A stretch of 64,000 nucleotides of DNA from Shigella phage Sf24. The notes under the pieces were generated by a model, which was given only the letters and a program-made list of their open reading frames with translations, was not told the DNA's origin and did not search any database. Shown piece by piece: positions 46,683 through 48,022 of the stretch; within the stretch, counting starts at the first letter, position 1, and each line of letters opens with the position of its first letter. The translations under genes and the position numbers were made by a program. The stretch lies in the sequence record MF327008. One strand, written 5' to 3'.

Positions 46683-47462
46683 TTAATTAAAAATATATAC
46701 TTCATCAGTTCCATTCTTTTCTTTGGAATGATATATGTTAAAGACGTATTTTTTATTAAGATGCTTAACATTATATTTTTTAGACCATTCTTTAAGAAGA
46801 GTGTTTTCCTTTCCGTGATGCTCTAAAACATTCGACAGTCCAAATTTTATTCCTCTGTCATTTAAAGAATCTAAAAGATTTAAAAGGTCTTTTTCTTCTT
46901 CTTCTGACCAAAATTTATTATAATCAGCAACTGTTATAAGATATGGAGGGTCCACATATACAAAATCGCCATCTAGAATTTTGACATCTTTAAAATGCAA
47001 TGAACTAAAGATTATTTTATCACAATTTTGTTTAAAGTGATTAAAGCGTTTTTCACTATTTTTGTTTATAGTTCTTTTTCCAAACGGAGTAGTAAAATTT
47101 CCTTTATCGTTTATACGAATCATATTACTAAACCCGTGAAAATGAAGAACATAAAGTAAAAGAGGATCTCTAGTTTTATTATAATCTTCACGTAATTTCA
47201 AAAACTCTTCTTTTGATGTTTTTGATAGTTTATATTGCTTTATTACTTTTAATACGTCATCCCATGATACATTAATAAGACGCTTATACATTTCAATAAT
47301 TGGTTCTTGAATATCATTGGCCAATACAGGACCATTGACGTTCAAAGACACTGATAAACCTCCACAAAATAAATCCACGAATCTGTCATATTTTGGAAAA
47401 TGAGGCTTAAGTTCAGGTAATAATGACTGTTTATTACCTGTATACGCGATAGCTCCTAGCAT
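46683..47462 (-). CDS. dam: DNA adenine (N6) methyltransferase Dam, 259 aa
   Basis: ORF track; [19 protein letters not shown]-terminus and DPPY catalytic motif. Confidence 0.9.
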
Positions 47463-48022
47463 TATATTCTCTCATTTATTGCAGCAAAAAACGAATTATA
47501 TAATTCTTCATCATATGTATTTGATAGTAATACTAACACGTTTTGTGATTTAGCATATTCATTAAACCTTGCTTGGATAGTTGGATTATTAGTAAATGAT
47601 TCTCTTTTTGTCCATTTATTACGTGGATAATATCCGCATGGCAAAAAATCTAATATCATCAATGACACAGGGTTTTCAGTTTTTGTGTATTCTTTTAATT
47701 TCTCTTTATCTTCTAAATATATTCCAACCGAATCAATAGCTGTACCTCCACCAACTTGGTGTTTGATTTCAATTATATGCTTTTTACCGTTGCGAGAAAT
47801 AACAATATCAAATCTTCTAGTACGCTTCTTAGTTATAAAATTAGAGCAAAACAAATTATTTGATTTTTCAGTATCATCAATTAAAACCATTTTTTCTTGA
47901 TAACTAACTGAACAATCAGTGAAATATTCTTTTACTTTATTAAGTATGAAATTTTCAACTACGGCAGATATTTTATATGAATCTCCGTTTAAAGCCATTT
48001 CATGCACAATTTTATTAATCAT
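47462..48022 (-). CDS. Putative PD-(D/E)xK-type nuclease, ~186 aa, translationally coupled to dam
   Basis: ORF track ORF 47462..48124 trimmed to Met with GAGGA RBS at 48022; motif [19 protein letters not shown] (D ... E-x-K); stop overlaps dam ATG by 1 nt. Confidence 0.45.

Follow-up and report, generated by a model that had tools for sequence, protein, structure and literature searches.

Does the Dam DNA methyltransferase of the T-even phages act alone, or is it the protective half of a restriction-modification pair whose nuclease is encoded by the gene just upstream? To our knowledge, it has never become clear what purpose the T4 and T2 Dam proteins serve in the phage, and they are usually called orphan methylases. 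The locus that raises the question lies in a stretch of 64,000 nucleotides from Shigella phage Sf24 (MF327008; hereafter the window), where dam (46683..47462, minus strand) encodes a 259-amino-acid D12-class N6-adenine DNA methyltransferase with a DPPY motif (PF02086, E 6.5e-51). An earlier, sequence-only reading of this DNA had reported an open reading frame (ORF) of about 186 amino acids immediately 5' of dam and overlapping its start by one nucleotide, and we found exactly this: the ORF occupies 47462..48022 on the minus strand (gp161 in Sf25, T2_032 in T2, phrog_8706), with its ATG at 48022..48020 and a TAA that ends at 47462 and has 1 nucleotide in common with the dam ATG (junction ATATAATGCTAGG). 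On the minus strand, the order is gene 61 (primase), the nuclease ORF, dam and gene 56, and the surrounding DNA (46600-49400) shares 99.9% identity with that of Shigella phage Sf25, a Tequatrovirus, and about 98% with that of phage T2. On balance, we think it likely that the nuclease and Dam form a compact type II restriction-modification cassette of virulent T-even-type phages.

As to whether the upstream ORF is a gene, we found that its homologues at 30-64% identity retain its length and its motifs, and that the intact gene is under purifying selection, with pairwise ratios of nonsynonymous to synonymous substitution (dN/dS) of 0.04-0.25, mostly 0.05-0.16, among close relatives. The conservation and the dN/dS ratios rule out that the ORF is not a gene. 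Hence, the nuclease ORF is a real protein-coding gene under selection. Its protein matches phrog_8706 ('unknown function') at E 7e-116, and it is labelled 'hypothetical' in almost all records. The program-made list of ORFs starts the frame at TTG 48124 (220 amino acids); every homologue starts at the ATG instead.

The protein is predicted to be a nuclease. The AlphaFold2 (AF2) model (predicted local distance difference test score 80.8, predicted template modelling score 0.79) is a single 186-amino-acid domain with the order alpha-beta-beta-beta-alpha-beta, which is that of the PD-(D/E)xK core fold. The D ... E-x-K stretch pointed out in the sequence-only reading is present, and E23, D72, E85 and K87 are invariant in nine aligned homologues down to 30% identity. 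They provide a glutamate in helix 1, an aspartate that ends strand 2 and the (D/E)xK motif in strand 3, the arrangement of PD-(D/E)xK enzymes, and are the putative catalytic residues. Also invariant in the alignment (30-64% identity) are H88, Q89 and G93-T-A-I-D-S98, i.e. an HQ..GTAIDS motif. The best structural neighbours of the model are MunI/EcoRI-type enzymes; the nuclease domains of Can2 and McrC are also among the neighbours, ahead of a long series of type II enzymes (BstEII, PfoI, PspGI, BsoBI, Bse634I, NgoMIV, Cfr10I, AgeI, SgrAI and EcoRI). Foldseek gives the same superfamily. A fold search of BFVD returned the orthologue of phage MX01 and weak generic nuclease matches, nothing else. 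The fold prediction thus bears out the earlier PD-(D/E)xK assignment. We hold the predicted fold, closest to orthodox type IIP enzymes, with much higher confidence than the restriction-modification reading.

Sequence searches place the protein near restriction enzymes, outside existing families. Searched singly, it gave sub-threshold matches in Pfam to DpnII (E 0.0099), BanI and HSDR_N, all of them restriction enzymes; REase_II of PADLOC matched at E 2.4e-4, and NCBIfam gave no match. An exhaustive hidden Markov model search of 1.84 billion representative sequences returned 12 proteins; all were phage-like, and none was a bacterial relative. Hence, with only 12 relatives in a collection of this size, the family is tiny and restricted to phages. 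A scan of IMG/VR added two loci, both in genomes already known. The protein appears to represent a new, very small restriction-enzyme-like family of 186 amino acids without a Pfam family of its own.

Is the nuclease tied to the methylase? We found a D12-class methylase directly 3' of the nuclease in all ten diverged T4-like lineages whose genomic context was available, its start lying 0-35 nucleotides before or at the nuclease stop. These lineages are the window, Dhakavirus MX01, Jiaodavirus KPV15 and seven metagenomic lineages, down to 30% identity, and the pair occupies three different contexts: between genes 61 and 56 in Tequatrovirus and Dhakavirus, 3' of rIIB and denB in Jiaodavirus KPV15, and just 5' of rIIA in a metagenomic contig (L005). 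Moreover, the identity values of nuclease and methylase are correlated (r = 0.66), and the nuclease is the faster-evolving of the two; for the window compared with MX01, identity is 64% for the nuclease, 63.6% for gp61 and 76% for Dam, and the rank order is the same across lineages. Since the divergence of the nuclease approximates that of gp61 and co-varies with that of the methylase, the pair is old and vertically inherited rather than a recent arrival. Hence, the nuclease both adjoins and is co-inherited with a DNA methyltransferase, and this genomic linkage is strongly in favor of a restriction-modification-like architecture and is the strongest evidence for it.

A different pair stands in Klebsiella phage KP179 (NC_055768.1, 2503..4803) where KPV15 has the nuclease. 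It consists of a 210-amino-acid ORF that carries D..DxK and matches Hjc weakly (E 7e-4), overlapping a second D12-class methylase (annotated as M.MjaIII-like), after which the Dam gene follows. The KP179/KPV15 slot may host alternative nuclease-methylase modules.

In a type II restriction-modification system, the methylase could stand alone and the nuclease could not. Among 514 phage records that share the region, about 147 carry both nuclease and dam (R+M+), about 33 carry dam with a 3' remnant of the nuclease, as in T4 (R-M+), and about 330 have no dam match, the empty site (R-M-) being checked directly only in RB32 and, in another genus, in RB69 (Mosigvirus). In agreement with such a pair, the methylase occurs without the nuclease, and the nuclease is never alone in the counts and the listed rows. 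The cassette of promoter, nuclease and dam (about 1.4 kb; 46683..48100, minus strand) is present or absent as one unit, a clean indel between the promoter of gene 56 and a small plus-strand ORF of 66 amino acids. With ten of ten lineages linked, three contexts, co-divergence and no nuclease-only genome seen, the type II-like architecture proposed in the sequence-only reading is well supported.

The nuclease has been damaged repeatedly while dam stayed intact. In T4, a 537-bp deletion takes the promoter and codons 1-158 and leaves the last ~28 codons as a remnant; as the sequence-only reading had supposed, T4 thus has no intact gene at this position. In KarlGJung (Bas37), only a 61-codon tail of the nuclease is left after a deletion between two GATGATAT repeats, and ESCO58 has an insertion of 4 nucleotides in the nuclease; dam is intact in both. 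The gene also contains a T6 homopolymer (47486..47491, minus strand; codons 178-179) whose length varies between phages, from T5 in T2 and T4 through T6 in most to T7 in ES21 (an unverified record) and T8 in KarlGJung. The change from T6 to T5 in T2 is a -1 frameshift that exchanges the final 8 residues and leaves the stop no longer coupled to the dam ATG. Hence, at least three independent events damaged the nuclease and left dam intact, and T2 may represent a fourth. Loss of the nuclease with retention of the methylase is the usual pattern of restriction-modification decay and is thought to be the origin of orphan methylases. Dam of the window is 97.7% identical to T4 Dam and lies at the same map position. 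The T run could be a slippage hotspot, like those proposed for phage contingency loci; a preprint on such loci mentions neither the nuclease gene nor dam.

The KarlGJung deletion also created a shorter ORF. At 702..887 of its locus (L018), the promoter and ribosome-binding site of the nuclease and a new in-frame ATG are fused to its last 61 codons, and this fusion is an annotated 61-amino-acid ORF without the catalytic core.

Which site might the nuclease cut? Scanned singly, four of nine family members have DpnII as their top Pfam family, and four of nine match at E < 0.01. The DpnII query was confirmed against Pfam and the protein database before its alignment was built, and hhalign of the nuclease against this DpnII profile gave a score of 34.8 over 140 columns (E 2e-4, with a reported probability of only 27-47%), with the helix glutamate, RFD(I/F)VI and (I/L)IE(I/V) in register. 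Since 21 column-shuffled or reversed controls scored 21.8 or less, the similarity is probably real, and it may reflect the shared core alone. The GenBank record of vB_EcoM_Shinka names the gene 'putative DpnII restriction endonuclease'. The sequences of MunI and EcoRI were verified against their PDB entries. With MunI, hhalign aligned the core only (27 columns, E 0.0026, probability 11%), weakly pairing D83..E98-I-K100-R-Q-D-G of MunI with D72..E85-I-K87-H-Q-x-G of the nuclease; with EcoRI, it produced no meaningful alignment. The resemblance of EIKHQ..GTAIDS in the nuclease to EAKHQG..GNAIERS is a lead that the EcoRI comparison failed to support. Where EcoRI has N/E/R in its recognition motif, the phage nuclease has T/D/S; hence, its specificity need not be AATT-like. 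Together, the Dam-type partner and the weak DpnII similarity suggest that the cassette is probably specific for GATC.

The sequence-only reading had also given the ORF its own early promoter and ribosome-binding site. The ribosome-binding site stands, as GAGGA (48034..48030, minus strand) is found 7 nucleotides before the nuclease ATG, and the promoter is no more than plausible. The promoter-like site (TTTACT-17-TATTAT with TG before the -10 element; 48076..48048, minus strand) matches the consensus of the T4 early-promoter type, and a scan found 13 such sites vs 16.9 expected from shuffles, i.e. no enrichment; a promoter is also annotated at this site in another group's record. The site, from which both nuclease and dam would be transcribed, is deleted in T4 and retained in KarlGJung.

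Beyond the cassette, the 66-amino-acid ORF (48116..48316, plus strand) encodes a predicted membrane protein, has a strong ribosome-binding site (AAAGGAGGA) and is convergent with gene 61, overlapping the gene 61 stop by 4 nucleotides. Its PHROG match is phrog_2024 (E 8e-31), and other genomes have it annotated as RB32ORF030w and RB69ORF029w; its DNA is kept in T4, yet no gene is annotated there in NC_000866.4. Within it, just 3' of gene 61, lies a terminator-like hairpin followed by a T run (48128..48153, minus strand), which could insulate the nuclease-dam promoter from gene 61 transcription.

How would such a cassette work? The nuclease would be the restriction half and the phage Dam the modification half, both expressed from one early transcript, with translation of dam coupled to the end of the nuclease frame. 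The nuclease may work as a small homodimer of the MunI/EcoRI kind and cleave double-stranded DNA where Dam methylates it; cleavage at GATC would probably leave 4-nucleotide 5' overhangs and would be blocked by N6-methyladenine. Dam, and perhaps glucosyl-hydroxymethylcytosine too, would protect the phage's own DNA, and the nuclease would attack unmethylated DNA of co-infecting phages and plasmids as well as cassette-free recombinants. Since the hosts are Dam-positive, host DNA would be spared and the likely targets are unmethylated invader or recombinant DNA; with such non-host targets, the cassette would serve in competition between phages or in its own selfish maintenance, and not in host shutoff. 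T4 would have retained the protective methylase after deletion of its nuclease.

Several results weigh against reading the pair as a GATC-specific restriction-modification cassette. Both the target sequence and the methyl-sensitivity of the nuclease are inferred, and neither the protein nor the family profile found a useful match to a solved structure among PDB sequences. No family member reaches the gathering threshold of PF04556, which is 23 bits (window protein, 15.7 bits; best member, P0009, 22.5 bits), the whole nuclease maps on DpnII residues ~126-287, i.e. only on the C-terminal ~160 residues, and the catalytic lysine of the nuclease (ExK) is asparagine in DpnII (ExN, with GSK later). 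Because of the sub-threshold score, the missing N-terminal ~125 residues and the ExK vs ExN difference, membership in the DpnII family is not established. We also considered GATC depletion as evidence. Among the 4-mer palindromes of the window, GATC is by far the rarest relative to expectation (74 observed vs 207 expected, a ratio of 0.36), and counts for RB69 (L024), KPV15 (L026), MX01 (L007) and L009 show that it is as depleted or more so in other T4-like enterophages. We rejected this as evidence specific to the cassette because RB69, which is cassette-free, is even more depleted (3 vs 39); whatever its cause, the depletion points to long-standing selection against GATC in T4-like enterophages. 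T2 dam mutants are said to be viable, from Hattman's work, which fits a restricting partner only if glucosyl-hydroxymethylcytosine also protects the DNA or if the frameshifted T2 nuclease is weak. The lack of nuclease-only genomes holds for the counts and listed rows of the 514 records, not every one of which was inspected. Finally, enterobacterial hosts are Dam-positive and methylated GATC is abundant in their DNA; since all known hosts methylate GATC, it is hard to see what a Dam-sensitive GATC enzyme would attack in them.

This last point suggests an alternative in which the host is the target. A methylation-dependent or host-directed nuclease would cut cytosine-containing, Dam-methylated GATC, as DpnI does, or host DNA generally, with phage DNA shielded by glucosyl-hydroxymethylcytosine and the phage Dam completing methylation of the host instead of protecting the phage. 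Methylated GATC would then be a plentiful substrate, the nuclease fold and an early-type promoter fit host shutoff, and chloroviruses reportedly degrade host DNA with their own restriction enzymes. However, the strict linkage to a methylase would be unexplained, since the hosts already supply Dam; the protein is a single domain without an additional domain for reading methylation; and the closest families, DpnII and MunI, are methylation-blocked enzymes. We consider this account improbable. A role outside restriction, either as a nuclease of repair or recombination (Hjc-, RecB- or MutH-like, e.g. nicking GATC) or as a DNA-binding regulator of dam that has retained a nuclease fold, seems to us equally improbable, since it is hard to reconcile with invariant catalytic residues, with structural neighbours of type II and with a nuclease that was lost repeatedly.

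The least probable account, and in our view a very unlikely one, is the homing-type alternative of the sequence-only reading, a freestanding selfish endonuclease with a target in or near nuclease-free alleles that spreads through recombination in mixed infections like T4 Seg and Mob: presence/absence polymorphism in close relatives, an intergenic slot with its own promoter, and the wealth of such elements in T-even phages (segF is two genes off in T4) speak for it, but the predicted fold is PD-(D/E)xK rather than GIY-YIG or HNH (neither domain was matched in Pfam, PHROG or NCBIfam) and lacks an added DNA-binding domain, the divergence tracks dam and gp61, which indicates vertical co-inheritance and not an incongruent distribution, absence from T4 is a deletion with a remnant and not an empty target site, and the cassette-free sites of RB32 and RB69 are without dam too, which makes the pair the mobile unit.

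If the upstream gene is the cognate nuclease of a restriction-modification cassette, the T-even Dam would be explained as its protective half, which T4 kept as a 'vaccine' after the nuclease was deleted. Strictly lytic, hypermodified phages would then carry restriction systems of their own, used in phage-versus-phage interference rather than host defence, and biochemistry would gain a very small new restriction-enzyme family. A broader proposal is that the complete cassette is a T-even weapon or addiction module against other phages and cassette-free recombinants, that T4 Dam is its retained antidote, that GATC avoidance in the Tevenvirinae is partly its footprint and that alternative pairs recur, as in KP179; we put this forward tentatively, as possible though rather doubtful. 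The hypothesis can be tested directly with existing phages, as nature already provides near-isogenic R+M+, R-M+ and R-M- variants. No paper describing the nuclease ORF came up in the literature searches, and the T2 record M22342 spans the ORF without annotating it. Miner and Hattman reportedly noted in 1988 a 536-bp insertion 5' to T2 dam, to which no function was assigned; our comparison of T2 and T4 gives a length difference of 537 bp 5' of dam.

Among the known systems closest to the cassette is restriction-modification of the DpnII/MboI type (R.DpnII, which cuts GATC, with the Dam-like M.DpnM), in which a PD-(D/E)xK nuclease likewise adjoins a D12-class, Dam-type GATC methylase. In contrast to these systems, the phage nuclease has 186 amino acids vs about 288 in DpnII and lacks its full-length architecture (about 280 amino acids), in the phage the nuclease gene comes first and its stop overlaps the start of the methylase gene, with no second methylase, and the carrier is a virulent phage with hydroxymethylcytosine DNA rather than a bacterium. 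The chlorovirus systems (R.CviAI/M.CviAI of PBCV-1, GATC) are said to be similar in that a lytic virus carries a full type II pair whose methylase shields the viral genome; they reportedly attack unmethylated host DNA, whereas the hosts here are already Dam-methylated, so that other invaders are the likely targets; the analogy is a biological one. A further comparison is T4 Dam itself, regarded as an orphan phage methylase, which sits at the same map position without an intact upstream nuclease, whereas Dam of the window phage, of T2 and of about 147 other records has an upstream nuclease partner.
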